From a virus: a DNA stretch of 64,000 nt. The notes beneath the pieces were generated by a model. The model did not search any database, had not been told where the DNA came from, and was given only the letters and a program-made list of their open reading frames with translations. The position numbers and the translations under genes were made by a program. Within the stretch, counting starts at the first letter, position 1; the number at the start of each line of letters is the position of its first letter. Shown here piece after piece: positions 4,225 to 58,021 of this stretch. The DNA is taken from the IMG/VR virus record IMGVR_UViG_3300029258_003681. One strand, written 5' to 3'.

Positions 4225-4271
4225 CCTAGCAACCTGGAGATACCGACCGAGATGGTCGGAGGAGGTTCAAG

Positions 4272-4508
4272 ATGGCCAAGGTAAGAATATTTGATAGGCG
4301 TGACGAGGACGAGAAGGAGCTTTTCGTCTCTGTCGAATTCGAACAAGTCGACATACTGGAGTCGGGAAACCTCGGTGCCCTTGGGCGCGAGAAGGAGACG
4401 GCTCTTCTCACGGCACTGGGGAAGGTCACGGCGCTGGAGGCGGAGCTAGTCTCGGCCAAGCGCGCCCTCCTGCTGCAATTGCAGGTTGTTCGTGCAGAAA
4501 ACGAATAG
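4272..4508 (+). CDS. hypothetical protein
   Basis: AGGAGG SD, first gene after the promoter. Confidence 0.65.
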   Translation: MAKVRIFDRRDEDEKELFVSVEFEQVDILESGNLGALGREKETALLTALGKVTALEAELVSAKRALLLQLQVVRAENE

Positions 4509-4519
4509 GGGAGCGTACG

Positions 4520-5164
4520 TTGAAACTGAAAAACAACACTGACTTCCCTGATTGGTTCCTGCGGAGGATGATCTCATGGGTCTGCAAGAACGGGCATATC
4601 GGGTGGTCGACGAAGAAGATCCGAGGGGGCGTTGAGGTCCGCAATCGCAACAAGCGGTACGCGAGCAGTTCTGGGTGTGCATGGCCGAGGGGCGAGCGGA
4701 TGGTTTTGTCGATCGGTACGCTCGATGTCTTCCGTCCTTACCTTCTCGATGAGAATGGGAAGCACATCAAGAACGATGACGGCCATGGTTTCAAAGTTGC
4801 GGACGAACCAGATCGGGCGGCGCGAATCCGTACGCTGGTGGAGCTGACCGCGCACGAGGTCACGCATCTCGCGCAGTGGGAGAAGACTTCGGATAAGGGC
4901 AGGTACTCTGAGAAGGAGGCGGATCGGGTAGCTAGATGGGTGCTGGAGGATTTCAAAAAGGAGGAGGCTGCATTGACGGCGGCTTGGATGGAGCCACCGA
5001 AATACGCGACAAAGCCAAAAAAGGAGAAGCCGACGATCAAGGAGAGGAACGCGGCGAAGGCCAGGGCCAACCTAAAGACCTGGGAGCGCAAGCTGAAGCT
5101 GGCGAAAACCAAATGGAAGAAATACGAACAACAGGTTCGTCGGTACGAGAAGGAGGGGTATTGA
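4520..5164 (+). CDS. HExxH putative zinc metallopeptidase with basic coiled-coil C-terminus
   Basis: AHEVTHLAQWE followed by YSEKEAD (candidate third-ligand Glu). Confidence 0.55.
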   Translation: MKLKNNTDFPDWFLRRMISWVCKNGHIGWSTKKIRGGVEVRNRNKRYASSSGCAWPRGERMVLSIGTLDVFRPYLLDENGKHIKNDDGHGFKVADEPDRAARIRTLVELTAHEVTHLAQWEKTSDKGRYSEKEADRVARWVLEDFKKEEAALTAAWMEPPKYATKPKKEKPTIKERNAAKARANLKTWERKLKLAKTKWKKYEQQVRRYEKEGY

Positions 5165-6181
5165 TGAAAACCGTATGGATTCCTGGCGAGGCGTATTGCC
5201 ACGCCCTCGAATGCATTGATCCTGAGAAATCGGATCTGATGGGCGAGGCGATCCAGACTCGGAACTACAAGCGTGGTAGGTCGAGCCACTTGGTGAAGGC
5301 CACTACAGAGCTGGCAAAGTGGTTCAGAGGCGAGGCTGAGTTCTGGAGTGGCCACGGGGTAGATCCTGATAGCAAATGGCGCGTGCGACCATGCAGGGTT
5401 GCTGCCAAGCGCATCGAGAAGGCGCTGGAGGAGAGATGAAGTTTTATTGTGTGACATATCGAGACGAGTCTGCGCCAGAGGGTATCGGGTTCGACATTTT
5501 TCGATCGAAGGCTGCTGCTAAGTCGTGCGCGGCTGAAATTCGCAGGATTTGCAGGAAGCAGGCGAGGGATTTGCAGGCCCAGGTGGAAGGTAAGGAGTTG
5601 GATTATTCACCTTCCATAGTCGACGAGGAATATACCGACATCGAGGTTGTGGAGATTCCCGAAGGTCTGACGCCGAAGGAGATGATTTTCTGGGCGCTCA
5701 AATGGCAAGTTGTTTGTTGAGGAGGAATATTATGGATGAAACTTTGGTGGAATGGCGCAAACACAAGCGTGAGGCGGTTCATGATTACGATCGGAAGCTG
5801 GAGCTGACGAAGGATGGGATCCCGTGTCCGACTACTGCTCAGATCGGTCTCAAGCTGGTGGAAGCAGGGGATGCGATATCAATCTCGTTGCTGGGTGGTA
5901 TGTCGCACGGCAGCGTGGCATTCACAAAGGACCAGAACAAGGCGTTCGAACGGTGGTTCCCGACGGACGATTCGGAGCCGACTAATGAGTTGGAGCGGGC
6001 CGGATCGTTCCGCAATCTGATGCGGCATGTCGAGGCACACGGGGTGCGCTTGATGGGATTCCTTGCAGGCCGTAGACTATTGGAACCTGGTCGTGATCCC
6101 GTCCTTACGCTCGCGGAGATGCTGGAGGATTACCTGGAGGAGCCCGTTGTGGATTTGACAGAGGAAGAAGAGACAACATGA
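5164..6181 (+). other. three hypothetical CDS (5164..5439, 5436..5720, 5732..6181)
   Basis: Overlapping start/stop codons, SD sites. Confidence 0.6.
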
Positions 6182-7416: not shown

Positions 7417-7419
7417 CAG

Positions 7420-7448: not shown

Positions 7449-7554
7449 GCCCTGGTGATACTCGACGCTGATGTCGGGGAGGAATGAGGAGTAGATGGTA
7501 CGTTACAAAATTCACACAAGGTCAACACATAGTCGAAGGAGTTACAATAATGAG

Positions 7555-8223: not shown

Positions 8224-8229
8224 GTAACA

Positions 8230-14139: not shown

Positions 14140-14197
14140 GTGAGTGCGAGGCAGGCAAACCAAGATGGTCAGGAAGATCCTGGCAGGAGGTTGAAGA

Positions 14198-16468: not shown

Positions 16469-17210
16469 ATGGATCTTTATTTAGTGAGCAAGGCGTCGCA
16501 GGACGAGACACGAACGGGTGTGGTAGAGGTTGCCGAGATGACGGTGTTTGGCGTTTTCACGAGTTCGTCGCGCGCGGCTGATATTGCAGCGAAGCATGAT
16601 GCGACAGTGACGGAGTTCGATGCGGACAAAGAGGTTTCGCAAACGGTGCAGCGTTGGTTGAATCCTGGCTATGTCTCGGGTTGATAAATTTTTTTTAATA
16701 TGGTAAGTCCGTCTAAAAGATATCGCCGATAGATGGCGGGGGATGGACGATGAAAGAAAATATTTCTGAGGTAATTACTTTGTGGGCAGAGCATGCGGCG
16801 CAACCTTTCCAGGGGATGGCAAAAGAGAAAATTGAAAAGCATTTATCCATTGCGATCGGTACTGCGATCCGAAATGGTGTAGTCGCATTTGAGGGGCTTG
16901 CCGATGTGGTGTTCGCGTACAAGTGGAGCAACAAAAATCGGATTACTGTCGAGTTGGATCCGTCGAAGTTTACTGGGGACATGCTCATTATCAGGAGTAA
17001 AGAGTGGGTGGAATAGGGATGCTGGAAGCCTTCGAGCTGGCAGAGGCCGTCGGCGATAAGGCATTGACGATTGATGAGTTATTGTTTGTGGCAGATGCGC
17101 GAAAGCGGAAGGGATGCCGCACTTTGAAATCTGCGTTATCCGCCGATGAACGTCGGCGAGTGATGAATCTTGGGTTGAAATGCAAAGCGTGGAAGGAAGA
17201 AAACCGATGA
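16469..17210 (+). other. three hypothetical CDS (16469..16684, 16750..17016, 17019..17210)
   Basis: ORF track and SD sites. Confidence 0.55.
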
Positions 17211-17584: not shown

Positions 17585-17620
17585 GTTGGTAGATACTGGA
17601 CGCGATGCCAGGAGGCGGAT

Positions 17621-18962
17621 ATGAGGTTAAAACACGAGAGCAAGTTGGTTCTTCCGTGGGAGGAGAAGCGCAAGCGGGTACCGACACCGATCAAGGCGGT
17701 TTGGTTCCTGCTTTTGACCATGGCATTTGTTGGGATCTTTTTGAATCAATGTACAGTCCCAGAGGCGAAGGCGCATCCAGATGTGTCTGGAGAGCGTGAG
17801 GTGATTCAGCTGCGTCGGAGGGAGATCAAGGCGCTGGAATCAATAGCTTTGTCGTTGAAGGCTATAGCGAGATCGCAAGGGGGACGATAGTGGGTGCGAA
17901 TACGAAGTATGGTTTTTGTCGAGGATGCAAGAAGTGGGTTCCCCGTGATGAGATGCTCTCGATAAATGTGAGTGTGTACGATGCCCAAAATAACGAGCGT
18001 CGAATTCCTTTGCGGTTCTGTCCATCTTGTCACAAGAAAAAGATAGAGGAGACAGAGGAGCTGAGGTGGGACAATGTTCTGAAGATTGAGGTAGAGATCA
18101 AAACCAACAAGGATCTGGCGGCTCAGTCGGACCTTGAATTCGATCCAAATATTGATGTGAGTGAAATTGCTGCGGCGTGGAGCAGGGATGCTGCTAGGCA
18201 AATTGTCAGACCAGTACCGAAGGCAATTCCTGCGGAGTCTGCGAGGGTGGAAAGGCCCGAAAAGAAGAAGGAAGGAAAACCAAAGCGGCGAAAGTTGGAC
18301 CCGAAGGATGATTCCGAGGCGGCCATGCGTCGGCGAGGAAAAAGGGTGGATATAAACTACTAGTTTTATTTCCCAATTGATACGTCGCGGGATGCGGCGA
18401 GGGAGGATTCATGGAAAGGTTGGAAGTGTTCAAAGAGGAGATCTTGTCGATGAATGCCCGTAAGCGGAGACTTCAAGATGAGATCGATAAAATTGACGGT
18501 CGTATCCAGGTTCTCAGGGAGATCATCAATGATGGCTCGACAACGGAGCGGTCGCGGGTGAGGGCTGGGTTGTTTCCTCGGGGTGAGCTTCCTACGCACT
18601 TGCTGGCTGTTGTGGAGGAGTCGGATCGGCCCCTTGATTCAAAAGAAGTCGCGAAGATCTTAAAGATGCGCCATTCGTGTCTGAAGGATGTTCCCCTGAA
18701 AAACATTGAGCAGGCTGCGTCGTCGGGCCTGTCGGATTTGTGCAAGAGGCACCGTCGTTTGAAGGCAGAAAAGGGGCCTGGTCGTCTGCTTCGTTACTCG
18801 GCGGCGCTTCCTCCTCTTGACGGCACTCTTGTTGTGTCTCACGATCACATTGGGATGATCCCCCCAATGCCTCACGATGAGAAAGCCCCACAGACCGACG
18901 AGGATGGCTTTGTGGACCCCGACTCGGTCCTTGGCGCCCCTGATGAGGGGCAGCATGAGTAA
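17621..18962 (+). other. three hypothetical CDS (17621..17890 single TM; 17890..18363 two CxxC; 18411..18962 coiled coil plus possible winged HTH)
   Basis: ORF track, SD sites. Confidence 0.55.
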
Positions 18963-20862: not shown

Positions 20863-20906
20863 GGTGGCGTTGCGAAGATACTCGCTAAGATGGCGAGGAG
20901 GAGGAT

Positions 20907-25254: not shown

Positions 25255-25295
25255 GTGTGCTGATGGCCGTCGAGATGACGGCAGGAGGAGACTAA

Positions 25296-29207: not shown

Positions 29208-29245
29208 ATGCGAGATGGCCGCGAGGATTGTGGCAGGAGGAGATT

Positions 29246-30587: not shown

Positions 30588-31640
30588 TTGATGGCTGACG
30601 AAAAACCGAATATTGCGACGATGGAGCCGCTGGAATATATCGAAGCTCGAATGGCTCAATTACCGGACACTGCGAAGAGAGTGTTGGGCTTTGAGGATCC
30701 CGCGATCAAGTCGCAGATTGCTCATATGTTTTCAGTGGAGTATATCCGTCTTAGGCATACCATGCTGGAGGGGAATTGCCGCGAGCTTTACCGTCGGTAT
30801 ATGGGTGCGATGAAGGCTCTGGAGAAGGCTGTGGGCGTGGATGATGCGAGACGTTTGTTTTTGGAGAGCATGGATCATGTTTCCGAAGACATTGGGGAGG
30901 TTCCGCAATTATGAAGTCGGAAGAAGAGAAGTTCGAGAGGTTGCTTAGTGAGGGACCGAATCTCACGACAATTCCCACGTGGCAGGAGATTGATGCGGAG
31001 TTGCGTGCGGGTGGATTGCCAGGGATAACAGCGAAGATTGAAATTGGTCAGCACGATTTGTATTTAAAAACAGCATGGTATAAAGGACGTATTGTTCGGC
31101 TTGATATTACATTGTCGCGTGGGCGTGAGCCTGGTGATGATTTGCCGAAGACGCATCACATGATTACACTGGAGACGACGCGGTTTGATTTGGCACGTTC
31201 ATGGGTCGAAAATGAATGTCGTATGGCGTCGAATCTTCTTCAGACGGGGCAGGCTGGCATCGGTACAATTCTCGATGAGTGGGTGGGGGTCGAGGGATAT
31301 CCGTCGGGTTTTTGTCCTCAATTACCTGGAGTGAATCCAGAGACTGGTTTGTCTGGGCCAACATATCAGAAGGGGCCATTGCACGCTGCTGCGATGTTGA
31401 TTCGGAGCAGGCTGGTTGCATGGTCTGAATTTGTACAAAGGAACCGTTATGCAGATTGAATATTTGGTTTTGTTTGGGGGAGGGGTGTTGACTGGAGTAT
31501 TGATGGTGGGATGGTTTGCGTGGAAGAATGTGCGAATGTACCGTCTCTTGTGGGAAAACGAGAAGGCGGGGAATGTTCTGTTGACGAGGCGTGCAATGGC
31601 TCTTGAGGAAGAGCGTATGGATTACGGAGGAGAAGACTGA
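30588..31640 (+). other. three hypothetical CDS (30588..30914, 30911..31459, 31449..31640)
   Basis: ORF track and overlaps. Confidence 0.55.
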
Positions 31641-32710
31641 TGGCTGGAAAGAGAAAAGGTGGAAAAGTTCGGCGGTTGGATCGGAACAAGTTGGCTGCTC
31701 CGATGACGGGATTTGCTCGTGTCCCAAATCCCGAAGGGGCTGACGAGGTGGGTGTCTTAGCGACGTTTGAAAATAACAAGTATGGAGTTTTTCTCAAGCA
31801 GTCGGTGTCGCATGGGTTTTCGGTGCCTGGTCCTGACGGGCAGCCCCGACCGATGGAGATCCTTCAATTGATTATTGTTCGGCTTGATAAAAAGCGTATT
31901 GAGATTCCGTGGGCGGAGAAGCAGGCCATTAAGAATGAACTACTGGGGCCGATGACTGAGGCGATGGAGCTGTTTCCGTCGGAGATGCGTCGGATGACTA
32001 CCATTGCTGGTCATCAGACGCACCTATGGGCTCTTCCTCCTGGGGCTACGATTCCTGTCGGTTTGGTTCCGAAAGCGATGCAGGAGATGGGCCGTGCGGA
32101 TCAGCTAGAGAAGCTGAAGGTTACTCCTGAAGAGTTGGAGGTGTATGCGGTCGATGATGATGGCGTGACTCAGATTTTCGAGTCCGAGGCTGAGGCCAAG
32201 AAATTGTATGAGGAGGCAGGAAACGAGCTGGAGGGTGGTTCTGTTGTTTCATTGGCTGAGGCTTTGACTGAGGAGAAGGGGGCTGTTTGGTCGAACGTGG
32301 CGAAAGTCAAGATGGCGAACGCTCTGGAGAAAGCGTCTGTTTTGAGCAATTTAATGGATCCTGACGCTGCGCCTGGCGGAGAGGCGACGAAGATTAATAC
32401 GAATGGGCCGCACACGGATCAAGATGATCTGGAGGATTCGATGGGGGTGGTTGACGAGTCTCCTAATGGCGATGAGGAGAACGTCATGATGCCTGAGTTT
32501 ATGAAACTGGGCATGGAGAAGATGCAGGTTGACAGACATCTTGCGATAGAGGATGCGGTAGCGAAGCTGAGGGCCAAGATGGAATCGGACAAAGAGGCGT
32601 CTGAGGTTAATGCCAAGGCGGAGGCGGAAGCAGAGGAAGCCGCTGGCGATGAGTTGGCCGCTATGCGCGAGAAGGCGCGACAGGAGCGAAAGAAGGCCGA
32701 GGAGAAGTAG
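31640..32710 (+). CDS. phage protein with conserved W.EKQAIKNEL.G...A.ELFP...HLW domain and acidic C-terminal half
   Basis: Motif recognised from a widespread uncharacterised phage family; function unknown. Confidence 0.6.
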   Translation: MAGKRKGGKVRRLDRNKLAAPMTGFARVPNPEGADEVGVLATFENNKYGVFLKQSVSHGFSVPGPDGQPRPMEILQLIIVRLDKKRIEIPWAEKQAIKNELLGPMTEAMELFPSEMRRMTTIAGHQTHLWALPPGATIPVGLVPKAMQEMGRADQLEKLKVTPEELEVYAVDDDGVTQIFESEAEAKKLYEEAGNELEGGSVVSLAEALTEEKGAVWSNVAKVKMANALEKASVLSNLMDPDAAPGGEATKINTNGPHTDQDDLEDSMGVVDESPNGDEENVMMPEFMKLGMEKMQVDRHLAIEDAVAKLRAKMESDKEASEVNAKAEAEAEEAAGDELAAMREKARQERKKAEEK

Positions 32711-33658: not shown

Positions 33659-33706
33659 GTCCTTAGCAAACGATCCCAGCAAGATGCTGGAGAAAAGGAG
33701 CCAACC

Positions 33707-35202: not shown

Positions 35203-35517
35203 ATGGGGACTACTCGGGTCGGACCAGAAATCATTTCAGCTGTAAAAGATGTTGTAGGGATCGTTCGGCATTTTGTTGATCATCCAGAGGGGGTCGAGGT
35301 GAATATTCGGCCTGGCCCGTATCGGGTTACTGCCGAATTGTACACGGCTCCAGAGGATGTGGGGCAGGTTGTGGGGCGAAACGGATATTTGATGTCGTCG
35401 CTTCGGGCTTTCCTGGCGGCTCTTGCTGGAAAACACCGCATCAAGATTGACCTCGATTACGTTACCGAAGAGGACAATGCGCGAAGTTCCAGTAAAAAGA
35501 GGGCGTCTTCGAGTTGA
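35203..35517 (+). CDS. khpA: KH-domain RNA-binding protein, KhpA (YlqC)-like
   Basis: IVRHFVDHPEGVEV...ELYTAPEDVGQVVGRNG (GxxG loop)...SLRAFL. Confidence 0.85.
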   Translation: MGTTRVGPEIISAVKDVVGIVRHFVDHPEGVEVNIRPGPYRVTAELYTAPEDVGQVVGRNGYLMSSLRAFLAALAGKHRIKIDLDYVTEEDNARSSSKKRASSS

Positions 35518-35591
35518 CTCTTTTTGCTTTTTGAGTGATCATCATCTTTGTTGAAACCATGATCGCCCAGCAGATCTGGGAGGAGGGTTTG

Positions 35592-43726: not shown

Positions 43727-43767
43727 GAACACTCGAAACGCAGCAAGATGCTGTGGGAGGTTGAAAG

Positions 43768-46433: not shown

Positions 46434-46508
46434 GCCTCTGTAGCTCAATTGGCAGAGCGGCAGGCTTTCAATCCTGGTCGGTTCTAGGTTCGAGTCCTAG
46501 TGGGGGCG
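46434..46508 (+). tRNA. atypical tRNA with 8-nt anticodon loop CTTTCAAT (TTC Glu or TCA reading)
   Basis: Acceptor GCCTCTG/TGGGGGC (three G-U pairs), D-arm GCTC/GAGC, T-arm CTAGG-TTCGAGT-CCTAG, 4-bp anticodon stem CAGG/CCTG. Confidence 0.7.
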
Positions 46509-46530
46509 CAGAAAGGAGCAGTCTGGTCTC

Positions 46531-46845
46531 ATGAGAGAACTCAAATTTATCATTGTAGAGGACGGAGAAGAGAGAATTGTGCGATTAGGAGATTCTTTTC
46601 CTGTAGGAACTCCTGCATTTCAGTACACTGATCGCAAGGACAAAAATGGGGTTGAGCTGTATGAGGGAGACATTTTGGCCATTCCTCCACATCTGGGATT
46701 GATAGGCGATATAGAGGAGGAGGTCATCCTTAAATTCAAGAAAGGCCACCTGAACGTTGATCTGGATATTGAGGGTTGCTGTTGGGTCATTGGAAATATC
46801 CGTAAGGACCCTGAGCGCGTGAAAGAATTCATGTCGAAGGAGTAG
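46531..46845 (+). CDS. YopX-family protein
   Basis: QYTDRKDKNGVELYEGDIL ... VIGNI. Confidence 0.75.
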   Translation: MRELKFIIVEDGEERIVRLGDSFPVGTPAFQYTDRKDKNGVELYEGDILAIPPHLGLIGDIEEEVILKFKKGHLNVDLDIEGCCWVIGNIRKDPERVKEFMSKE

Positions 46846-46848
46846 ATT

Positions 46849-48484
46849 ATGAAGAAGCTACATTTAGTGACGCAGCGAGGGCAGCCGTATGGAAGTCAGA
46901 GGCAGTGTTGTGAGCGCTGCGGCTTATCGATATATGAGATGGACGGTCTTGTGGATGGGTATGTCACAGACGAGAGGAAATATAGAGAGCCGCCAGGGGG
47001 CTGGGCTAAATGTGCTGACGCTTCGAAGGAGGTCGAAACAAACACTGAAAAGGAGATGTTATGAGCGAGTACAGAAATGAGATGAGAGAAGTCCACAGAG
47101 AGGCGCGGTGGACATTCTGGAAGTTCCTTCCGTTGCTGATTGTGGTCCTCGTAGTTTTCGCTGCAATTGGTTTCGGATTAAACAGTGTGGGCCTTTTCGG
47201 GAAGACTGTTGTTGAGCGGAAAGTGTTCGAGCAGTCCTACCAGCGGAGCGAAGCCATCAAGGCCCAGATTGCAACGGACGAAGCCGTGCTGGTCGAGATC
47301 GAGAGGAAGTTGATGAATCCAAAGCTAGATGAATCGATTCGTCATAACTTGGAAGCGCAAGCGGCGGCGGCCCGTGTCCGTATCGCCACAGCGAAAGGAA
47401 GACAGTAATGAAAAGATGTCTGATTGTATTTGTGATTATGTTGTTCTTGGCAGGGTGTGTTGTTTCTCCTGAAGAAACGACTGAAAGCAGAGATGCCCAA
47501 CGGGTGTCCCAGCAGCAATCCCAATACGAAAAAGGACAACCAATTCCAGCATTCGATTGGTCGCTGGAGAGACACCTTGTGATCGAGTTGTACAGGGTGC
47601 GGAACCAGAAGGCCGCGACTCACTCAGTCTGGAGATCAGATCGTGGAATGATCGAAGGGGACTGTCCATCTTATGGTTACGGTATTCCTTATGACACGAG
47701 TTTGACCAACCCATTGGTTGCAACAGATATTGATAACCAAGGGGAAGAACACAGCTATCAGGGAGGTGCTTTGGCTTCTATTGAACAAGCAGAGCCCAAC
47801 GGCATCTTCGCTTCCAAGAACACGGCGGCGACGTGGGTGATGTGTCTTGGGGAGGCTGGCAACATCGAGCCTGTGTACGTGGAGACGAAAGTCACGGTAT
47901 ACCCTGGCCCTGTCAAGGTGCACTACGATAGTAATCGGGTCATTCGAAGTGGAGCTGCCACGGTGCTGATCAAGAAGAAGTAAGCGGTTGACACCATTAA
48001 TGACCGTGATTAGGATGCTGGCATGACAAGATTCACCTGAATGCAGCGGTGCTAGAGCCCCACCCTAATAATCTTTCTCTGTTTGATGGCTGAAACAACC
48101 AGAAGGAGGAAGGTTATGAACGAGCGATTGATTCATCTAAGAGTAAAGATCAAGAACCTGGCTGACGAGGCGAGGACTATCCGTGAGGAGGCCGCGAAGG
48201 TCAGCGGGATGGCGAAGTGGAATCTAAACCATCATCGAAAGACGGTGGTGCGGCAGGCGGCCAGGGAGAACTTACTGGCCTACGGACTGCTGCGGAGGAT
48301 GCCCTACGAGGCGATAGAACGGCATACGAGCGCGTCTCCAAACTTCTCCAAGGTCAAGGCCCATGCGATGCGGTTCGGCGCCACGGAGGAGGAGGTGGTC
48401 GCGTGGATCGATGAGGCGAAAGCCTATCTGGAAAAGCAGGCGAAGAAAGAAGTTGACAAACGCCAAATGAGGATGGCAGTATAG
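46849..48484 (+). other. four CDS (46849..47064; 47061..47408 TM protein; 47408..47983 lipoprotein with LAGC lipobox; 48116..48484)
   Basis: ORF track; promoter TTGACA-N17-TAGGAT at 47988..48016 precedes the last. Confidence 0.6.
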
Positions 48485-48490
48485 CCGTTG

Positions 48491-48632
48491 GCGCTGAGAA
48501 CTGGAGAGAGACTTCAGCATTTTGGGATACAACCCGAAGGTTCCAGGTTCGAATCCTGGACTCCCCAATTTTACGGGGAGTTGGCTCAACGGCAGAGCAT
48601 CGTGCATCGTTTCTCGCGACTTCCCTCGGCGC
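48491..48632 (+). ncRNA. Y-RNA-like (YrlA-type) RNA with a circularly permuted tRNA domain
   Basis: T-arm 48543-59 precedes an acceptor stem closed by a loop (48560-81) and the D-arm (48584-98); terminal stems GCGCTGAG/CTCGGCGC and GAGAGAC/GTTTCTC; T run follows; TTGACAAACG promoter at 48453. Confidence 0.75.
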
Positions 48633-48643
48633 ATTTTTTTAAA

Positions 48644-48999
48644 GGGCTCGACACGGTTTCGACGTGGATCGACGAGATTAGGGTCTGCGTGCCCCGGATT
48701 CCGGTCGCCGGGTTAAAAAGGCTGGAAAACACAACTGGCGAAAATATGCCACTCCAGGAGGCCGCTTAGAGCTTCCTCGTCCTGCCCGCAAGGCTGCATA
48801 GCGGGGTCGTGGGCGTCATTATGCAGCGAACCTTGTTATGCTGTTGCCCATGTGCAGCGAGCATTGTAAGATCGAACATGAGGCATCCTCGGCGCTTTGT
48901 TCGTGGGCGAAGGGGTCAAAGAGTTGACGCGAACCACGCGCGTGGATGAGGACTTTGATTGAGGATTTGCGGACGGCGGTTCGACTCCGCCCGAGTCCA
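48644..48999 (+). ncRNA. ssrA: tmRNA; predicted tag (A)GENMPLQEAA*
   Basis: 5' GGGCTCG..TTCGAC and 3' GGTTCGACTCCGCCCGAGTCCA with G3-U70; tag ORF 48737..48769 ends in AA-stop; 356 nt. Confidence 0.92.
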
Positions 49000-49146
49000 A
49001 TTGGCCTTGGGATGGCCACAAAAAAGCACCCTGGTGTAGACGGTGGGCTTTGGCCTGCAACGCGACTCGGGATGTCGTAAAAAGCGCCCTGGTGGAGGCG
49101 TTGGGAAACCAACATTTACGAAGGCGGGTGTAGCAACCCGCCATAT

Positions 49147-49218
49147 AGCGGGGTGATGCAGTGGTAGCAATCAGGTCTCATAAGCCTGAAGTCATCGGTT
49201 CGAATCCGGTCCCCGCTA
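49147..49218 (+). tRNA. tRNA with CAT anticodon (elongator Met or Ile2)
   Basis: Full cloverleaf, loop CTCATAA; lacks the initiator 1:72 mismatch and the three consecutive G-C pairs. Confidence 0.9.
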
Positions 49219-49221
49219 CCC

Positions 49222-49526
49222 AGAGGTCTGAACGGAGGCGTGACCAGTATGAGCTTGACGAGTGAAGGCGATAATCGTAGCGAGGGTGGGTACCATGAAA
49301 AAGAGCCCTCACGCCACAACGGGGCAAGGAACAGTGCGAAATAGCGTCCGTGACTGAGGACGGAGAGACGTCCCATAAATGGGTGAAACGCCCTACGAAG
49401 CCAGGTCAACGTGACCATGCCGCGTCTGGCGGGGAAAGGTATGGAGGGAGATGTCAGGTCCGCCGATAAATAGGGACAGGCAAGCCGAGGAACAACGGAC
49501 GGGCGGGTGGAAGGCCCGCTGTTTTT
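49222..49526 (+). ncRNA. unidentified ~300-nt structured RNA ending in a terminator
   Basis: No SD-led ORF; multiple helices (GGCGTG/CACGCC, GAGGGT/GCCCTC, CGTCC/GGACG, GGTCA/TGACC, CCATGCC/GGTATGG); terminator GCGGG-N7-CCCGC plus T run. Confidence 0.5.
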
Positions 49527-49569
49527 ACAGAAAGGAGGACTAAATGGCTAGATAGAAAGGAGGTGTTTC

Positions 49570-49773
49570 ATGTCGCACCACAAACGGCGCAAGCCGCGAA
49601 GCCAGAGGGCAGGATGCAAGATGTGTAAACCTTGGAAGATTAATGGAATAGGAAAGAACACATCAATTTCAGAGGCTTTCTCGGACTACAAACGTAGGCA
49701 ATTCCAGCGTCGAGATATGGAAGAGGATATGATGAGCACTGATAGCTCAACTGGTAGAGCCGTCGGTCGATAA
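49570..49773 (+). CDS. small basic protein with CKMCKP motif
   Basis: AGGAGG SD; 3' end overlaps the next tRNA. Confidence 0.55.
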   Translation: MSHHKRRKPRSQRAGCKMCKPWKINGIGKNTSISEAFSDYKRRQFQRRDMEEDMMSTDSSTGRAVGR

Positions 49774-49808
49774 CCGACAGGTCGTTGGTTCAAATCCAAC
49801 TCAGTGCA
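49736..49808 (+). tRNA. tRNA-Ile(GAT) with C33
   Basis: GCACTGA/TCAGTGC; loop TC-GAT-AA; T-arm GTTGG-TTCAAAT-CCAAC. Confidence 0.9.
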
Positions 49809-49814
49809 CAGAAG

Positions 49815-49892
49815 GGGTCAGTAGCGCAAAGGCAGTCGCGGCAGGCCGTTAACCTGTGTCTTATGTAGGTTCGAATCCTACCTGGCCCGCCA
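49815..49892 (+). tRNA. tRNA-Asn(GTT) with C33, encoded CCA
   Basis: GGGTCAG/CTGGCCC, G73 then CCA; loop CC-GTT-AA; T-arm GTAGG-TTCGAAT-CCTAC. Confidence 0.85.
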
Positions 49893-49930
49893 AAAACGAT
49901 GGCGCTGATGATTGGCGCAGGAGGTGATAG

Positions 49931-50356
49931 ATGAATGAGAAACCAAAAACTCTGGGCGACGTGATGGGGAAAGATCTTCCTGGTTGGAAGATGGTGCAGG
50001 GATATTGTCTTGCTTTGAGTCATGGCCTGATGGGATTCTTTCCTGCTGTTACAAATGATGAATCCGATGATGGCAGGGGCGAGATTGTTGTGTGTATCGA
50101 GAAGATACAGCTCAAGCGTGTCTGGGATAAGTTGCGTCGCAGGAAGGCGCATGTGGACTCGTTTCAACTGCTGGTCAATGAGGAGATGCGGATCGGGTTC
50201 GATGTTAAGGGTGGGGCTGACATGAAGTCTTTGCGGGTGTTTCTGGAGAGAGATCTTGATGAAATGTGTGCTATGGAAGATCCTTTTCGATGGGCACGAG
50301 GGTTGTTGAGCTTTTCCGAGTGTCCCGAAGACTTTTCCCCTGATTTTGGGGATTGA
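49931..50356 (+). CDS. hypothetical protein
   Basis: AGGAGG SD, ORF track. Confidence 0.6.
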   Translation: MNEKPKTLGDVMGKDLPGWKMVQGYCLALSHGLMGFFPAVTNDESDDGRGEIVVCIEKIQLKRVWDKLRRRKAHVDSFQLLVNEEMRIGFDVKGGADMKSLRVFLERDLDEMCAMEDPFRWARGLLSFSECPEDFSPDFGD

Positions 50357-50497
50357 AGGGATAGGACTGTTGCGAACTGGAGTTCGCGGGGGCTGACTTC
50401 CGAGATGACGGCGGGGATAAAATAGGTTGACAAACTTGCGATAGGGAGTAATATAGCCAGTGTGGATCGCAGCAAGATGCTGCTGGTTGGAGCGAGA

Positions 50498-50935
50498 ATG
50501 AATCTGAGGTTTTACACAAGGGAGACATTGCAGGAATCGATGCGGTGTTTCTTCGATTACGAGCGTGGAACTTTTTCAATGGAGGACAAAATGAATGACT
50601 CTCTTTTAAGCGAAGGTAACGTGGTGAGGGTGGAGGCTCTCAAGGAGTTGACGATCATGGTGGCGGCGCCAGGAGCCACTCGGGACAATACGACTGTCCA
50701 CACGGACGTCGGTTCTGATGGCAATGGTGGCGGTACGATCCATCTGAGCGTGGGCAAGCCCGACGTGTCCGAGGACTTGCAGGAGAGGGTCGATCTTTCG
50801 TTCGACGTGACTCATACGGTGCCGTCCCAGTATGATCTCAAGACGATCAAGGTCGGCATCAAGGACGGACTGATCTTCATGAAAATCAAGGCTTCGAAGG
50901 ACAGGATCTCTGCTGTCGTGATCGACGAGGAGTAG
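50498..50935 (+). CDS. small heat-shock protein (Hsp20/alpha-crystallin domain)
   Basis: TIMVAAPG, SFDVTHTVPSQYDLKTIKVGIKDGLIFMKI; promoter TTGACA at 50427. Confidence 0.7.
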   Translation: MNLRFYTRETLQESMRCFFDYERGTFSMEDKMNDSLLSEGNVVRVEALKELTIMVAAPGATRDNTTVHTDVGSDGNGGGTIHLSVGKPDVSEDLQERVDLSFDVTHTVPSQYDLKTIKVGIKDGLIFMKIKASKDRISAVVIDEE

Positions 50936-50939
50936 GTCG

Positions 50940-51956
50940 GTGGCTGACATCATCAGATACGGAATGGGGCGCAATTATCTTCCTGACTGGGGGTTTGCCG
51001 AGGCTCTGCGTGAGATCTATCAGAACTTCAGAGACTTCGGGGATTTTCAGCAGGGGGTTACGGCCCTTGCAGACTCCGATCTTTGTGAAGTCACGATGGT
51101 GAATGGCTTCATGCCAGAGGGTCATAACTTCATGAAGATCGGCGAGTCTGCGAAGCGAGGAGTGGCGTCGAAAGTTGGCGAGCATGGTGAGGGGCTGAAG
51201 ATGGCCTCGCTGGTTCTGAGGAGAAATGGGTGCAAAGTCGTAGTGCGATATGGCAATACTGAGCTGGCTGGGACGTTTTATGATGACCCGTACCTCGGGG
51301 AGTGTTTCGGTTTTGTGGTCTGCCCAACTACATGGATGGATGGGTTCAGGCTCACGTTCCAGGTTCCCAGGGAGGAATTCAAGATCTACGAGGAGTCGCA
51401 GCTGGATCCTGACAAGGACGTCATTCACTCTTCGACTTGCGGTGATCTCCTGGATAGGCCCAAGGGCGAAGTCTATGTGGGTGGTCATTTTGTGTCGGTG
51501 GTTGATGGGTTGCAGTATGCTTACAACTTTAATCCCAAGTTTGTGTCGCTGGACAGGGATAGAAAAGTTCCTCGTGATTTCGATGTGAATTGGGCGGCTT
51601 CGCAGATCCTTCAAGGCTGGGACGGTATGAAGGTCAAGGATATGGTTGAGCGGGATGCGTCATATATCGATCGGGTACCGCCTAAGATTGCGAAGAAGTT
51701 CAGACCCGCGTTGGCCAAGGGGGGAGCGGTTGTCTTTCGTGCTCAGAACATCCAGGCTCCTGACAAGGTTGCCAAGAAGCTTATGGAGATGCCTGTGAAT
51801 CAGAAGCGGGTTGCCAAGCTGAAGTTCAGTATGAGCCGCAAGCGGACACCTCATTCTATCCTTAAGGAATTCATGGATAAATATCGTCGTCATCTTCCTG
51901 CGGAGGGGAAGGCTGATGCGGTTGTTGTTTTGAAGAAGGCGAAGGGTTGGAAGTAG
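50940..51956 (+). CDS. GHKL (Hsp90/MORC-like) ATPase-domain protein
   Basis: ALREIYQNFRD (N box), IGESAKR..VGEHGEGLKMASLVL (G boxes). Confidence 0.75.
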   Translation: MADIIRYGMGRNYLPDWGFAEALREIYQNFRDFGDFQQGVTALADSDLCEVTMVNGFMPEGHNFMKIGESAKRGVASKVGEHGEGLKMASLVLRRNGCKVVVRYGNTELAGTFYDDPYLGECFGFVVCPTTWMDGFRLTFQVPREEFKIYEESQLDPDKDVIHSSTCGDLLDRPKGEVYVGGHFVSVVDGLQYAYNFNPKFVSLDRDRKVPRDFDVNWAASQILQGWDGMKVKDMVERDASYIDRVPPKIAKKFRPALAKGGAVVFRAQNIQAPDKVAKKLMEMPVNQKRVAKLKFSMSRKRTPHSILKEFMDKYRRHLPAEGKADAVVVLKKAKGWK

Positions 51957-51981
51957 TTTGAAAAAAAGTTGAAGAAAGGTG

Positions 51982-52009
51982 TTGACAAATGCTGTGGGGG
52001 AGTTACTAT
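51982..52009 (+). promoter_or_regulatory. sigma70-like promoter TTGACA-N16-TACTAT
   Basis: Predicts a start site just at the 5' end of the 52014 RNA. Confidence 0.7.
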
Positions 52010-52013
52010 CCCC

Positions 52014-52144
52014 AGCGTACCGAGAACTGGAGAGACATTCCAGACAAATAGCTCATTTGGTAGAGCATTGGTATACGGAACCAACGGTAGCAGGTTCAAT
52101 TCCTGTTTTGTTTACCCAGATGTTTCGCAAATTCTCTCGGTGCT
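52014..52144 (+). ncRNA. Y-RNA-like RNA enclosing a complete colinear tRNA cloverleaf (anticodon ACG)
   Basis: Cloverleaf 52042-52113; outer helices ACCGAGA/TCTCGGT and GAGACAT/ATGTTTC; T7 run follows; ends homologous to 48491..48632. Confidence 0.7.
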
Positions 52145-52160
52145 TTTTTTGACAAGATCG

Positions 52161-52267: not shown

Positions 52268-53887
52268 ATGATGAAGGACATCACGCCAGCAAGAGGATTG
52301 TGGAAAATTAACGGTGAACTCGCGCCAGCTGACGCCAGCAAGACGGTCTGTTCGTTTCTGGACACGGCGACGACCTCGTATGGTCGGGCGACTCACTACA
52401 ATACTCGCGAGGAGCAGAAACAGGCCGAGCTTGCGGTTCATGGCGATTTGTTTGTGATGTGCCGTGACATTTATTTGGCGCTCCTGTTGCTCCCAGGCGT
52501 GACCGATCATGCGCGGCAAATCGGCATCGGGAGTCTGTTGTCGAATCCTCGCGGGACGGACGCGGACATTTTTCTGAATGCGCGGATGGAGCGGGAGGTT
52601 TTGGTTCATCTCGTGAGCCATATTTCTCCGCCAAGGATGTTCAAGTTGTTCGACGCGTTCCGTGGACGCGGGGGTGAGTTCGGCGTGACGAAGGCAAATA
52701 ACGCACGGACGCGGAAGCTGATTCTGTCCACGCTTCTCGGGGCGAAGCGACTCGATCTGTGGGCAGTGAAGTATCGCTCCAAGATGTCGCGCGTGCTCGC
52801 GCATGCGTGGGGTCAGCGTCGGGCCAGCATCATTGGGTCGATCGTGCAGAAGGATCGGCGGACCTGGACGGCCAAGGAAAAGGCGATCATCAAGGAACAT
52901 GTCTTCAAGTTCCGTGGTGGGAACCAGGAGAAGTATGTGGTGGAGTGCATGGCCTTTGTCGCAGGGAAGCGAGAGGGGTTGACGATCCGTCTGCTCAAAG
53001 CGTTCGTGGATGCCAGAGTGGATATCAAGGCTGGGGAGAAGCTTCCGACCGAGGTCCTGGAAGGGATCCGCAGCACATATCACCCAGGGATCAAGCCCGA
53101 GGAGTTGATCAAGGTGAAGGCCGAGTCGGGCACGATGACGACTTGTGAGAAGCGTGTGGTCCAGAAGAGGGCGAAGTCGGCAGGCGTCGAGGTGGCGATG
53201 GATCCATTGCGGTACGACCCCGTGGAGTTGTACATCTACGCCTTTGAGAACGGAGCCGACGAGAAGGTGTTCGAGGCATTGGACCAGAAGGCCCAGGCTG
53301 CTGCTGCGGCTCTTCCGATGAGCTACAGTAAGATTGGTATCCTTGTGGATGGCTCGGGATCCATGGCTGGGGATCGAACTCAGCATTTGCGGCCTTTGGC
53401 GACGACATTGGCTCTTCGGGATATGCTGGCGAAGTCGGCTGACCAGAGTGAGATCGTGTACTGCGGTGGTGTCCTCGGGGATGACCAGCGGATAGTTCGG
53501 CCGCAGGGTGATACTTCGCTTGCAGAGGGCCTCTTGCACGCTCTGGGCCGCGAGCCCGAGGCTGTGTATGTCCTCTCGGATGGATACGAGAACGCTCCTG
53601 CTGGGCGCTTCCAGGACGTTCTGGTGGCTGCTCGGGGGATTGGTATCGATGTGCCAGTGTTCCATATGAACCCTGTGTTCGCGGCAGAGGGGGGCGCTGT
53701 GCGGCAGCTGTGCGACGAGGTGGAGGGTGCAGCGACGATGCCAGTACGGACTCCAGCTGCGCTTGCAACGTCCATGTTGCGTGGGTTGCTGGAGACAGAT
53801 CCTGAGACGGGGATCAATGCCCTGGTTCGGGGTGCGCTGCGAGGTTCGACGATTGAGAGCCTTGCTTTAATTGGAGGTGAAGCATGA
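52268..53887 (+). CDS. helical TROVE-like plus vWA protein (Ro60/Rsr-like architecture)
   Basis: C-terminal vWA MIDAS IGILVDGSGSM and VLSDGYEN; long basic helical N-part. TROVE homology is inferred, not verified. Confidence 0.6.
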   Translation: MMKDITPARGLWKINGELAPADASKTVCSFLDTATTSYGRATHYNTREEQKQAELAVHGDLFVMCRDIYLALLLLPGVTDHARQIGIGSLLSNPRGTDADIFLNARMEREVLVHLVSHISPPRMFKLFDAFRGRGGEFGVTKANNARTRKLILSTLLGAKRLDLWAVKYRSKMSRVLAHAWGQRRASIIGSIVQKDRRTWTAKEKAIIKEHVFKFRGGNQEKYVVECMAFVAGKREGLTIRLLKAFVDARVDIKAGEKLPTEVLEGIRSTYHPGIKPEELIKVKAESGTMTTCEKRVVQKRAKSAGVEVAMDPLRYDPVELYIYAFENGADEKVFEALDQKAQAAAAALPMSYSKIGILVDGSGSMAGDRTQHLRPLATTLALRDMLAKSADQSEIVYCGGVLGDDQRIVRPQGDTSLAEGLLHALGREPEAVYVLSDGYENAPAGRFQDVLVAARGIGIDVPVFHMNPVFAAEGGAVRQLCDEVEGAATMPVRTPAALATSMLRGLLETDPETGINALVRGALRGSTIESLALIGGEA

Positions 53888-54867
53888 CACGGAGAGACAA
53901 TGTGTCGATGGAGGACATTCTGTTCGGAGTCGGACATGGGCGTCCACAGAGCGTTGGCAATATGGAGGTCATCCCTCTTGTTGACGAGGGGGGGATCCAG
54001 GATCAGGGTTTTGATCCGCCTGATGGAGTGCAGGTTGGAACTTCCAACTATGGGACAGTGAACCTGCGGCATGAGGGTTCCAGGCCGACGATCATTCCGC
54101 CTGGTGCTGGTTGGGTGGTCAAGGAGGCTGCACAGGACCATGCGATCGGGAGCGGTGCGTTCATCCCTGGCGGCGGATCCAAGAAAATCGACACGGCCAT
54201 GTGCATCCAGTCGAACCAGGGCGGCACCATTTCTCAGGCTGCTCACGAGATGTTGATCCTCCCTGTCAGCTTGCGGGCTCCAGCTTTGGCTCTTCGCAAG
54301 AAGAAGGAATATGGGAAGCTGTGGAAGGATATTGGAACATTCAACAAGGGTTACGGTATTCGGTCGGAGCAGCAGTTGGCCTATTTCCTGAAGAACTTCG
54401 GCAAGCAGCTGGACCAGTTCGTTGCGGAATTTGAGTTGGTGCCGAAGCAGATCGGGGCGATCATCATGGTCAACGGCAAGTTGGTCGGTGTTGAGATGGC
54501 GCCAACGGTTGATTTTTGGGCAGCGATCTGGTCTCCGCTGATCCGTGTTTGCTACGGATCGTTCGCGGTGCGTCATGCTGATGATGCACAGCTGAACCGT
54601 GAGCCGTTGCAGATCGAAGAGCCGACTTTGGATGGGATCCAGGCGGCTTTGGATGTATCGCAGCGTGCGAGGGCCGAGCGGACTGATCGGTTGATTGAGC
54701 AGGTTCGATCTGATCAGTTTTCTCTTGGAACGGTCGATGGCAAGATGGCTGGCTATCGATTGATCACGGTCGGATCTCCAGGCGCGGTTCCGCTGGCGGG
54801 GCAGCTTGTCCTGTCCGAGGCGGCGAGGACGGCTCCTTACCTTTCCGTGTGTGTGAATGCCCGATAA
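53884..54867 (+). CDS. ARPP-1 / DUF6569-like protein
   Basis: GNMEVIPL, AQDHAI..AMCIQ, VPKQIGAIIMVNGKLVGVE..W..IW..LIR.CY. Confidence 0.6.
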   Translation: MTRRDNVSMEDILFGVGHGRPQSVGNMEVIPLVDEGGIQDQGFDPPDGVQVGTSNYGTVNLRHEGSRPTIIPPGAGWVVKEAAQDHAIGSGAFIPGGGSKKIDTAMCIQSNQGGTISQAAHEMLILPVSLRAPALALRKKKEYGKLWKDIGTFNKGYGIRSEQQLAYFLKNFGKQLDQFVAEFELVPKQIGAIIMVNGKLVGVEMAPTVDFWAAIWSPLIRVCYGSFAVRHADDAQLNREPLQIEEPTLDGIQAALDVSQRARAERTDRLIEQVRSDQFSLGTVDGKMAGYRLITVGSPGAVPLAGQLVLSEAARTAPYLSVCVNAR

Positions 54868-54944
54868 TAGTCGCGGTTTGAGGATGAAACCGTCCTTCTC
54901 TCCCTTGATAGAATCTTTCCAAAAAGGTAGAATGTTGGTCCTGC

Positions 54945-56300: not shown

Positions 56301-56748
56301 TGGCAAAAGGAAGAAGAAAGCGTGTCGGGGATTTCAGGGTCAATGATGAGGTGGTTTTAAAGGGGCGAAAGGATGGGCGGAGATTTACGATTGGTGGTTT
56401 TCCTTCCCGTCGGACGGTGATTGTCAATGCGATCAATCCCGAGAGTGGGCTACCATCTTCGGTCAAGTGTGCCCTTGGCGATATTGAAAAGGTTGTGTGA
56501 TGAAGCTCAGAATAACGAGGGTTTTCGAGGGGGATTCGATTACTAAGTATTTGGGTTTGTGTGGGTGTGTTGGGGTTCTTGCGCCAGAAGATGGTTTGTT
56601 GATTCAGGAAGAGGGGCGCTCAAAAGTGTATGTTCGTGCGTCAGATCTGGAGGCTGCGTTGAAGCTTGATGCTTCTGACGTGGTGGAAGTTGATCCGTGG
56701 AGGAAAGATGACGAGGCATCGGCCGAGCAAATACCTACCGAAGAATGA
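56300..56748 (+). other. two small hypothetical CDS (56300..56500, 56497..56748)
   Basis: ORF track, overlaps. Confidence 0.5.
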
Positions 56749-57097
56749 TGGGTCTCCTGATGATCAGGAACGTCGTGTTGCGCGCAGGCTTGGAGGGAAG
56801 AAGGTAGCGGGCTCAGGATCCTCGATGTATTCGAAGGGGGACGTGCGCGATGTTTCGGCCATTTCCGAGGCGGATTCTGCTGACTCTGTAGAGTTCTTGA
56901 TTGAGTGCAAGCAGACGATCCATGCGAGTCTTTCGGTGAAATGGTCATGGTTGACAAAGATTACGCGGGAGGCGAATGCTGTGCAGAAGGAGCCTGCCTT
57001 GGCGATCGAGATTCAGGGCGGTAAGAATGATCCCATGTGCGACAGAGATTGGGTTTTGCTCCCAGCCCGTACGTTTGAGAGATTAACGAAGGGGTAG
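56708..57097 (+). CDS. PD-(D/E)xK nuclease, Holliday junction resolvase-like
   Basis: ERRVARRLGG..AGSGS..KGDV..LIECKQT. Confidence 0.75.
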   Translation: MTRHRPSKYLPKNDGSPDDQERRVARRLGGKKVAGSGSSMYSKGDVRDVSAISEADSADSVEFLIECKQTIHASLSVKWSWLTKITREANAVQKEPALAIEIQGGKNDPMCDRDWVLLPARTFERLTKG

Positions 57098-57124
57098 TGC
57101 GAACTGGAGTTCGCGGGAGATGAA

Positions 57125-58021
57125 ATGGACCCTAATGATCCGTATGTTTGGCTGCCTCGGGAGTTGTGGGACAATGTGGTGGTCTTTTCTGGGATTGTGA
57201 ATGCTGATGTTTATGCGGTTTTGTACAACGCGATTCGTGGGCATTTGAAGATGCACAGCGAGAAGTGGACCCAGGAGCAAAAGGATCGATTTGCTGAGTT
57301 GCTTCAGTTGCGAAAGAAGGACAGGGGAGAGTGCGATGCCGACGTTGGATGAAATTCTTGATGGTGAGGTCGGTCCTCGATGGAAGGCCAAGGGTCGCGG
57401 CCAGATGCTTGTGCCCGAGCAGATGCTGCGGCAGTGGCGACTGCATCCGCGCGAGATGTATAAGATATTCCAGCTGTTCGAGGAGTCCATGAACAATGAT
57501 GGTTTTCGGTACGAAGCGATCACGCCTGATCTGCTCCTTGGCAAGCTTCCGATGATTATGCATAGGACATGGTTTGAGGCGATGAACAAGGGGTGGGTTG
57601 TTGGTGAGATTCCTCCATTTAGGTTCGAGCAGAACTCGATAAACCCGAGCCATATCGGGCTCGTTTGGGAGGGGCGCATGGTCTCTGTGAATTTCGATCC
57701 TGACGGTTGATAAACGCTGCGTGGCATGGTAATGTGCTGTTGTTGATTGCTGCTGAGATGGCGGCATGGGAGGGTTGAATGCTGTTCGATTTCATTCTGA
57801 GAATTCCTTATTATCTTGTGCGATTTTTCGTGCCGAGGTCCGTGTGGGATGGGTGGTTGGCATCTTTTCGGGAGTTGGAGGCGGGTATCGATCGGCGCAA
57901 GCGTGATGATGGGGTGCCGAATAATTATGTAGAACATAGAAAATGGGAGAATAAAAATTGTACGTGGCGACGGTCTATCAGGTGGAAGCTGATCAAAAAG
58001 CGCTGGCCGTTATCGATCTGA
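57125..58021 (+). other. three hypothetical CDS (57125..57352, 57336..57710, 57779..58021); promoter TTGATA-N17-TAATGT at 57707..57735
   Basis: ORF track, SD sites. Confidence 0.55.

Follow-up and report, generated by a model that had tools for sequence, protein, structure and literature searches.

Promoter-early stem-loops (PeSLs) are cassettes of T4-type phages with a transcription-terminating stem-loop that lies 5′ of the promoter boxes or overlaps them; their stems are sequence-conserved, taking the forms Gn-loop-Cn or A3-4G3-loop-C3T3-4 (Arbiol et al. 2010, PMC2839356; Comeau et al. 2014, PMC4122927). They are the nearest published concept for the element described here, a recurrent leader hairpin that carries two conserved GAU triplets and abuts the Shine-Dalgarno (SD) site of genes in the IMG/VR virus record IMGVR_UViG_3300029258_003681. 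The stretch of DNA analysed, hereafter the window, is 64,000 nt long and represents bases 48424–112423 of a single 194,905-bp virus record, which has direct terminal repeats at its ends, a GC content of 52% and nearly every gene on the plus strand. The virion gene set encoded at genome 148–185 kb, namely a T4-type Gp23 major capsid protein, Gp20 portal, prohead protease and tail sheath, identifies it as an uncultured T4-type phage. A megablast search of GenBank phages with 20 kb of the genome gave no match, and a tblastn search of GenBank phages with the helicase gave distant matches only (≤30% identity). Window and genome record differ at 257 of 64,000 positions with coordinates unshifted, and no checked hairpin sequence is affected; positions below are those of the window unless marked as genome.

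The likeness to PeSLs lies in a multi-copy cassette of near-consensus sigma-70 early promoter, stem-loop, SD and start codon, concentrated in non-structural plastic regions before small, functionally uncharacterised genes. PeSLs are defined by three features: the repeated early promoter with SD and start codon is found here, whereas the other two, the placement of the stem-loop as a terminator and the conserved stem, are not. The hairpin instead lies 6–43 nt downstream of the −10 box, abuts the SD and has no U-tract, and its stems vary freely while the loop and a 5′ GAU are fixed. The A/G that follows it likewise departs from terminators and attenuators, in which a U-tract follows the GC-rich hairpin.

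Lambda-type nut sites occur in two copies per phage, with conserved stems and a boxA partner and without a link to the SD. Their protein-read boxB hairpin resembles the present one in its promoter-proximal position, its size of about 15–17 nt, its 5–6 bp stem and its purine-rich pentaloop. The differences are that here about 20 copies with free stems keep a fixed SD register without a boxA-like block, the profile of 69 copies showing no conserved block besides GAU in the 10 nt upstream of the hairpin, and that the loop is R-M-G-A-U closed by C-G rather than the GNRA-like (G...A) pentaloop on a conserved stem that characterises boxB. In T4, many early messages similarly have a common signal at their ribosome-binding sites, which allows class-wide post-transcriptional control by RegA and RegB; the targets of these proteins are unstructured sequences, AU-rich around the AUG and GGAG. 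Here a two-GAU hairpin takes the place of such a signal, and neither RegA (PF01818) nor RegB (PF10715) had a match at E ≤ 1 in the whole genome. The 5′ stabiliser hairpins of E. coli ompA (hp1), the T7 gene 10 leader and the B. subtilis aprE leader share a stable stem-loop near the 5′ end with a strong SD next to it, the overhang here being a predicted 4–5 nt or so, but they are single cases without a conserved loop, unlike the present family of 20 copies, whose loop and flank triplets are invariant. Sites of CsrA/RsmA also display a purine triplet in a hairpin loop just upstream of or overlapping the SD, a dimer reads two of them, and the consensus RUACARGGAUGU obtained for CsrA by systematic evolution of ligands by exponential enrichment resembles R-A-GAUG. 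The invariant triplet here is GAU rather than the GGA of CsrA sites, since G precedes G15-A16, at loop position 14, in only a minority of loops (7 of 69 copies), and no CsrA gene was found in the phage. The initial annotation knew of no described family for the hairpin, and no curated RNA family of Rfam 15 matches it, the window yielding at gathering score only transfer-messenger RNA (tmRNA) and tRNAs in a search whose models reach very short motifs with difficulty. The element is best classed as a regulatory hairpin of the 5′ untranslated region at the ribosome-binding site, and is not a terminator, a nut site, a CsrA site or a member of an Rfam family.

Anatomy and conservation of the hairpin module

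An ungapped alignment of 20 copies and a base profile of 69 copies give the consensus W-W-G-A-U-R, a 6-bp stem, R-M-G-A-U, the 3′ stem with usually G as its first base, and (A)GGAGG. In full, the module runs from a GTTGAC(A/T)AAC promoter and −10 box through WWGAU-R, the variable stem, the R-M-GAU loop and (A)GGAGG to an AUG 5–9 nt further on. The upstream GAU, which the initial annotation had overlooked, sits 12 nt (11–13) 5′ of the loop GAU regardless of stem length and is nearly as well conserved (G in 68, A in 67 and U in 61 of 69 copies, compared with 69, 67 and 69 in the loop); in a few orthologous copies the first site is GAA instead. The loop had been described as an N(A/G)GAU pentaloop, of which the fixed GAU holds; positions 1 and 5 are able to pair (A-U or G.U), and the loop may therefore be an RGA triloop. 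Only 0–1 nt separate the 3′ stem end from the SD in the 69-copy profile, the loop A lies 16–24 nt (mode 20–21) from the start codon, and positions 24–30, downstream of the stem, are A/G in more than 90% of copies, that is, purines without a U-run. Folding predictions give a median stem probability of 0.95 at about −8 kcal/mol, with both GAUs and the SD mostly unpaired. Two coding roles were considered and rejected. Of the 69 copies, only 51 have an AUG at the second site and 37 at the first, and the true start falls in frames 0, 1 and 2 of the loop AUG 23, 18 and 23 times, which shows no frame preference and rules out a leader peptide or upstream open reading frame (ORF) beginning within GAUG. 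Mimicry of the start-codon context is not distinctive either, AGAUG occurring at the true start of 24% of hairpin genes and 16% of all genes.

The hairpin is a recurrent element, and the evidence for it is stronger than first described. Two tests do not presuppose it. Among plus-strand hairpins of the whole genome with a stem of at least 5 bp, a 5-nt loop and an abutting SD and start, the loop ends in GAT 19 times and in the next most frequent triplet 5 times; shuffling in 100-nt blocks leaves 1.3 ± 1.0 loop-GAT cases (maximum 4). The same tally in related phage records gives 20 vs 6 in G001, 10 vs 3 in G026 and 5 vs 3 in G019. The pattern GAT-N9-GAT-N6-RGRRG, in which pairing is not required, has 7 matches in the window, six of them the hairpins, compared with 0.98 ± 0.91 in dinucleotide shuffles. 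Pairing itself is kept in 97.5% of stem cells of the 20 seed copies, with all six pairs altered on both sides, and in 97.0% of stem cells of 67 copies from seven phage records of 34–64% GC, where all six pairs covary (score 1.108, vs 0.265 for shuffled and ≤0.20 for slid controls), figures that are biased toward structure because both alignments were picked or fitted with the hairpin in mind. Each stem position shows 4–6 pair types, and all six pairs are variable. Stems thus vary and covary around a fixed GAU loop, as expected from the selection on RNA originally proposed, and a scan with a covariance model (R1) of the kind suggested at the outset recovers 20–21 copies in the 194.9-kb genome, four of them on the minus strand, together with further copies in relatives, which bears out the claim of a genome-wide element.

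The hairpin is selected as a sense-strand RNA structure. Among 102 stem pairs, G.U outnumbers A.C by 17 to 1, pairing is kept in stems that all differ, the four minus-strand copies (genome 6765, 10129, 10353 and 47530) run in the same direction as their own genes, and comparison with orthologs in G001, G002 and G019 reveals compensatory changes: CCGACC/GGUCGG vs CCGGCU/GGCCGG, CCCAG/CUGGG vs CCCGG/CCGGG, GCCGUC/GACGGC vs GCUGCC/GGCAGC, and GUCAGG/CCUGGC vs CCUAAC/GUUAGG, the last in the 34%-GC relative. It is very unlikely, in our estimation, that GAT-N9-GAT functions in DNA, as an operator for a repressor bound over the start site or as a PeSL-like recombination module maintained by gene conversion. 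Such a role would account for the 12-bp direct repeat that overlies the predicted start site in most copies and for a repeated cassette of promoter, leader and SD like that of T4-type PeSLs (PMC2839356, PMC4122927), and G001 differs from this phage by a small gene inserted between the conserved cassette and the NAPRTase gene, an indel of the kind that accompanies PeSLs and recalls their shuffling. However, compensatory stem changes and the excess of G.U over A.C would be meaningless for a duplex DNA site, both GAUs are kept in copies that have no promoter, and gene conversion would homogenise the stems, yet all of them differ.

Register with promoter and ribosome-binding site

A promoter GTTGAC(A/T)AAC(G) with a 16–18 nt spacer and a TANNNT-like −10 box stands upstream of 52 of the 69 copies, in agreement with the initial description of most copies as lying between a TTGAC-type promoter and the first GGAGG of a transcription unit. 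From the −10 box to the first GAU the gap ranges from 6 to 43 nt overall; it is 6–10 nt in 32 of the 52 promoter-linked copies, which places the predicted transcript start about 4–5 nt before the stem. A second group has a gap of 14–18 nt and a CAGCAGGCAA-like leader, and a few copies have gaps of 24–43 nt. About 15% of copies are without a recognisable promoter, among them the copy at 49896–49925, its G001 ortholog and the copy at genome 10129, which is intercistronic on the minus strand before the second gene of an operon. The hairpin is missing where same-class promoters serve tRNAs or other RNAs (48453 and 51982). The hairpin is therefore tied to the ribosome-binding site and not to the promoter, and the fixed register with SD and start, the loose promoter link, the promoter-less copies and the absence from RNA-gene promoters together argue that it functions at the ribosome-binding site of messages rather than on the transcription machinery. 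As a separate observation, a leader subclass has a conserved C/A-rich block, (A)CCAGCAGGCAA, between the −10 box and the first GAU, lengthening the 5′ leader by about 8–10 nt; it comprises genome 47530 and 10353 (both minus strand), L029 and L043 of G001 and L094 of G010.

These relations bear directly on antitermination, one of three functions offered by the initial annotation and the one that fits worst. A nascent hairpin that recruits a factor to RNA polymerase, allowing early transcription to pass terminators as in nut/boxB systems, would suit a promoter-proximal hairpin of lambda boxB-like size with a purine-rich pentaloop in many transcription units. Yet the register is kept with the SD while the distance to the −10 box varies, promoter-less copies exist, tRNA-driving promoters of the same class lack the hairpin, no boxA-like companion is conserved, and stems vary freely where boxB stems are conserved within a phage, making this mechanism highly improbable. 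A sigma-dependent or consensus pause element was also considered and set aside; the conserved bases do not fit it and persist in promoter-less copies. Pairing of GAU with the 3′ tail of 16S rRNA (the AUC of GAUCACCUCC) was rejected for its geometry, which needs the GAU to lie 3′ of the SD.

Possible functions and a candidate reader of the GAU sites

All genome copies lie at 6.7–10.4 kb and 39.8–132 kb, outside the gp20/gp23/sheath virion block, and the carrier messages most likely form an early class with sigma-70-type promoters, as judged from promoter type and gene location. Among the functions weighed, translation control and 5′-end protection may both be compatible with the data. We tentatively favour, at somewhat less than an even chance, that early messages carry the hairpin as a translational operator or decay signal common to their class, with built-in 5′-end protection and exposure of the SD as a second effect. 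Because the stem is free while two invariant unpaired triplets are held at fixed spacing, which a stabiliser alone would not need, sequence-specific reading by a two-site partner is suggested. In the mechanism that we posit, the cis-acting RNA module in the 5′ untranslated leader of early messages would present GAU(R) single-stranded just 5′ of the stem, in most copies no more than a few bases from the predicted transcript start, and a second GAU in the loop; the simplest reader of both would be a dimeric or two-domain RNA-binding protein. Bound beside the SD, this partner could set ribosome access, decay or both for the whole early class at once, a role analogous to that of RegA and RegB on T4 early messages, proteins without a counterpart in this phage; the hairpin as such would, in addition, protect the 5′ end and leave the SD free of pairing.

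The closest rival dispenses with a reader. A factor-independent leader is possible though somewhat unlikely. Its hairpin alone would protect the 5′ end, as a cap, from 5′-end-dependent decay, prevent misfolding of the SD and perhaps speed initiation through coaxial stacking on the SD/anti-SD helix; the GAUs would be kept for start-site choice and loop geometry or be read by the ribosome. This reading agrees with the 4–5 unpaired bases predicted to precede the stem in 32 of 52 promoter-linked copies, with a copy behind a tRNA that would also sit at a processed 5′ end, with the abutment of stem and SD in all copies and with an SD mostly unpaired in predicted folds. The occurrence in phages of 34–64% GC, presumably with different hosts, favours universal machinery, the genome contains a second hairpin class abutting SD sites (described below), and 5′ stem-loops that stabilise messages are well known (ompA, T7 gene 10 leader, B. 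subtilis aprE). What it leaves unexplained is an invariant loop GAU with a second one at a fixed 12 nt in 67–69 copies while all stem positions vary. Intercistronic copies and those with 14–43 unpaired leader bases, moreover, would not cap a 5′ end, and promoter-less copies keep the first GAU, which is thus not merely a start-site feature.

The two triplets might alternatively be a cleavage signal: a phage or host endoribonuclease could cut at or near the GAUs and trim the leader to a stable, hairpin-capped end, or could cut open the loop and so silence early messages once later expression sets in, like RegB in function. A fixed structure displaying two identical unpaired triplets beside the SD of early genes only would suit such an enzyme, T4 RegB cleaves the GGAG of early SD sites and no RegB was found here, and leaders with 14–28 extra 5′ bases could be trimmed to the first GAU. 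We regard this as decidedly unlikely, given that no nuclease candidate emerged among the genes tracking the motif, which are RNA-repair-like or of function not known, and that no known nuclease of GAU specificity was found.

For the two-site partner that we favour, the first candidate would be a KhpA-like KH-domain RNA-binding protein of 104 aa encoded on the plus strand at 35203..35517, with an intact GXXG (GRNG) motif (Pfam KH_KhpA-B, 5.3e-12; PDB 7xqc KhpA, 2.8e-7). Two GAU(R) sites would suit this leading candidate, since a KH domain contacts some four single-stranded bases and KhpA proteins are dimeric. It is 49–84% identical in G001, G002, G009, G016, G019 and G026, that is, in all large records with the motif; genome 125110 has a paralogous KH region, and an alignment search for relatives of the protein in viral contigs returned the same family only. 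KhpA had been among the candidate binders put forward in the initial annotation and is confirmed to be encoded here, though it also occurs in a relative without hairpins; of the others, the Ro60/TROVE-like ORF gave no Pfam match in the scan, and ASCH and KTSC proteins were not located. No bS21 ribosomal protein gene was found in the phage. The window encodes an RlaP-like RNA-repair nucleotidyltransferase (1714–2697) and, beside the Ro60-like ORF, a protein with an ARPP-1 domain (53884–54864); G001 and G002 have the Ro60-like/ARPP-1 pair and the RlaP-like gene, and G009 and G028 lack them, yet G009 keeps copies of the hairpin.

Several observations weigh against a dedicated reader, and against the KH protein in particular. 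In the 32 of 52 promoter-linked copies with a gap of 6–10 nt the first GAU partly overlaps the predicted start site, so part of its conservation could be a promoter or start-site effect, and the second SD-abutting hairpin class hints that a hairpin against the SD may matter in itself. The motif-less G028 has a KH protein 66% identical to that of this phage, which means that the protein does not need the motif and that the motif is dispensable for the phage type. Co-occurrence of KH gene and motif is what shared ancestry alone would give, and phyletic profiling of phage proteins across motif-rich (G001, G002, G019, G026), motif-poor (G009) and motif-less (G028) records yielded none that convincingly tracks the motif. 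For KhpA no RNA sequence preference is known (preprint 10.64898/2026.10.12.757534). The specific proposal that the two-GAU hairpin is the operator of a phage KhpA-like KH-domain dimer, switching the whole early class on or off at the ribosome-binding site, is unlikely as it stands. If the KH protein does read both GAUs, the hairpin would be the first sequence-specific target, and with it the first defined RNA recognition motif, of KhpA proteins, a family still poorly understood, and a KhpA-like operator would amount to a RegA-like circuit made from unrelated parts. In any case the module is a clean 30-nt RNA motif with about 20 copies per genome, strong covariation and occurrence in at least seven phage records; it marks what is probably one temporal gene class in large uncultured T4-type phages with no regulation known, gives a means of annotating the start codons and early transcription units of these metagenomic genomes, and is a candidate for a new Rfam family as well as a compact natural "promoter + insulated ribosome-binding site" part.

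Copies in the window and in related phages

All eleven hairpins listed in the initial annotation are real, with coordinates and sequences confirmed, and one good copy (49896–49925) had been missed. All copies described here are on the plus strand, with bit scores from the R1 scan. The first, GAGAUA-CCGACC-GAGAU-GGUCGG-AGGAGG (4237..4266; 35.2 bits), precedes an ATG at 4272 and follows a GTTGACAAACG promoter at 4195. The copy at 14162..14191 (AAGAUG-GUCAGG-AAGAU-CCUGGC-AGGAGG; 35.4 bits; ATG 14198) has orthologs with different stems in G001, G002 and G019. No TTGAC promoter was found upstream of UUGAUA-CGUCGC-GGGAU-GCGGCG-AGGGAGG (18377..18406; 29.2 bits; ATG 18411), and a GTTGACTAACG promoter precedes AAGAUA-CUCGCU-AAGAU-GGCGAG-GAGGAGG (20875..20904; 30.9 bits; ATG 20910). 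The NAPRTase gene (Pfam; ATG 25296) carries CUGAUG-GCCGUC-GAGAU-GACGGC-AGGAGG (25260..25289; 36.0 bits), whose G002 ortholog differs by two compensatory pair changes. A SWIM-finger gene (ATG 29246) carries GAGAUG-GCCGCG-AGGAU-UGUGGC-AGGAGG (29212..29241; 29.2 bits), which includes two G.U pairs and so pairs on the sense strand only, and a DUF932 gene (ATG 33707) carries the 5-bp-stem copy ACGAUC-CCAGC-AAGAU-GCUGG-AGAAAAGGAG (33669..33698), which has a compensatory CCGGU/GCCGG ortholog in G001 and scores low (12.9 bits) because of its 11-nt GAU spacing.

The copy AUGAUC-(G)CCCAG-CAGAU-CUGGG-AGGAGG (35559..35588; 27.0 bits; ATG 35592) likewise has a compensatory G001 ortholog, CCCGG/CCGGG. At 43733..43762 (UCGAAA-CGCAGC-AAGAU-GCUGUG-GGAGG; 27.8 bits; ATG 43768) the first site is GAA, and both GAA and hairpin are kept in the orthologs of G001, G002, G009 and G026. 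The added copy, ACGAUG-GCGCUG-AUGAU-UGGCGC-AGGAGG (49896..49925; 27.9 bits; ATG 49931), is promoter-less and begins 6 nt past the 3′ end of a tRNA-Asn (49815–49892), and its G001 ortholog is likewise directly behind a tRNA. A GTTGACAAACT promoter at 50426 precedes GUGGAUC-GCAGC-AAGAU-GCUGC-UGGUUGGAG (50462..50491; 23.9 bits; ATG near 50498), and a GTTGATAAACG promoter precedes UUGAUU-GCUGCU-GAGAU-GGCGGC-AUGGGAGG (57743..57772; 27.8 bits; ATG 57779). Three degenerate copies had also been reported. Two of them are scored, at only 16 and 14 bits: GUGAUA-CUCGAC-GCUGAU-GUCGGG-GAGGAA with a 6-nt loop (7455..7485; 16.1 bits, E 0.13), and UAGAUA-CUGG-ACGCGAU-GCCAGG-AGG with a 7-nt loop (17590..17619; 13.9 bits, E 0.56), which has a GTTGACAAACG promoter upstream. 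The third, AAGAUAU-CGCCG-AUAGAU-GGCGG-GGGAUGG (16717..16745), is weak; it is seen in the sequence but falls under the reporting limit, with no R1 match up to E = 10. A further weak copy, CGGAUC-AAGAU-GAUCUG-GAGGAUUCG-AUG (32421–32449; 13 bits), lies within a 356-aa ORF (31640–32710); its AUG at 32444 is in frame with the host ORF and may be an internal start or a chance match.

The module is conserved in a family of uncultured T4-type phages of very different base composition. G001, a syntenic 176-kb record with about 65–70% protein identity, has 19 copies, G002 has nine, G019 (GC 34%) seven and G026 (GC 64%) six, the last two being fragmentary records; G009 and G021 have three each, and the further fragments G008, G010, G013, G016, G022 and G025 have some. 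Ten unrelated contigs matching the bare DNA pattern were counted with 0 copies, and the range over these contigs together with three distant jumbo phages is 0–1. The family also includes the complete 157-kb G028, which shares the promoter consensus and was recruited via its KH protein and not via the motif; it has no copy and no GAT enrichment, and its orthologous leaders are unstructured or have a hairpin of another, G4-AAAA-C4 type, distant from the SD. Within G028 (L133–L140; e.g. 121892 and 154010) the GTTGACAAAC promoter is kept, and some leaders have a G4-5-AAAA-C4-5 hairpin about 12 nt before the SD, which recalls the Gn-loop-Cn stem of RB49 PeSLs.

The second hairpin class of this genome has the fixed sequence RCGAACU-NN-AGUUCGY and about 29 copies genome-wide, those in the window being at 3990, 7142, 12883, 25482, 34779, 44340, 50374 and 57101. 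Many copies end directly at the SD (e.g. GCGAACUGGAGUUCGC-GGGAGG, genome 158652 and 188480), mostly before non-early genes; the SD position is as in the GAU hairpin, but the stem is conserved, and the class may be its later-class counterpart. Two further features of the genome were noted. A phage-encoded tmRNA (tag GENMPLQEAA; 48644–49002) is accompanied by several tRNAs (46434–52116), one of them with a 4-base anticodon call (ttca), and the T4-type portal (Gp20) gene, which lies outside the window at genome 148520–151213, contains an intein with an HNH endonuclease domain (Pfam Intein_splicing and HNH_3).

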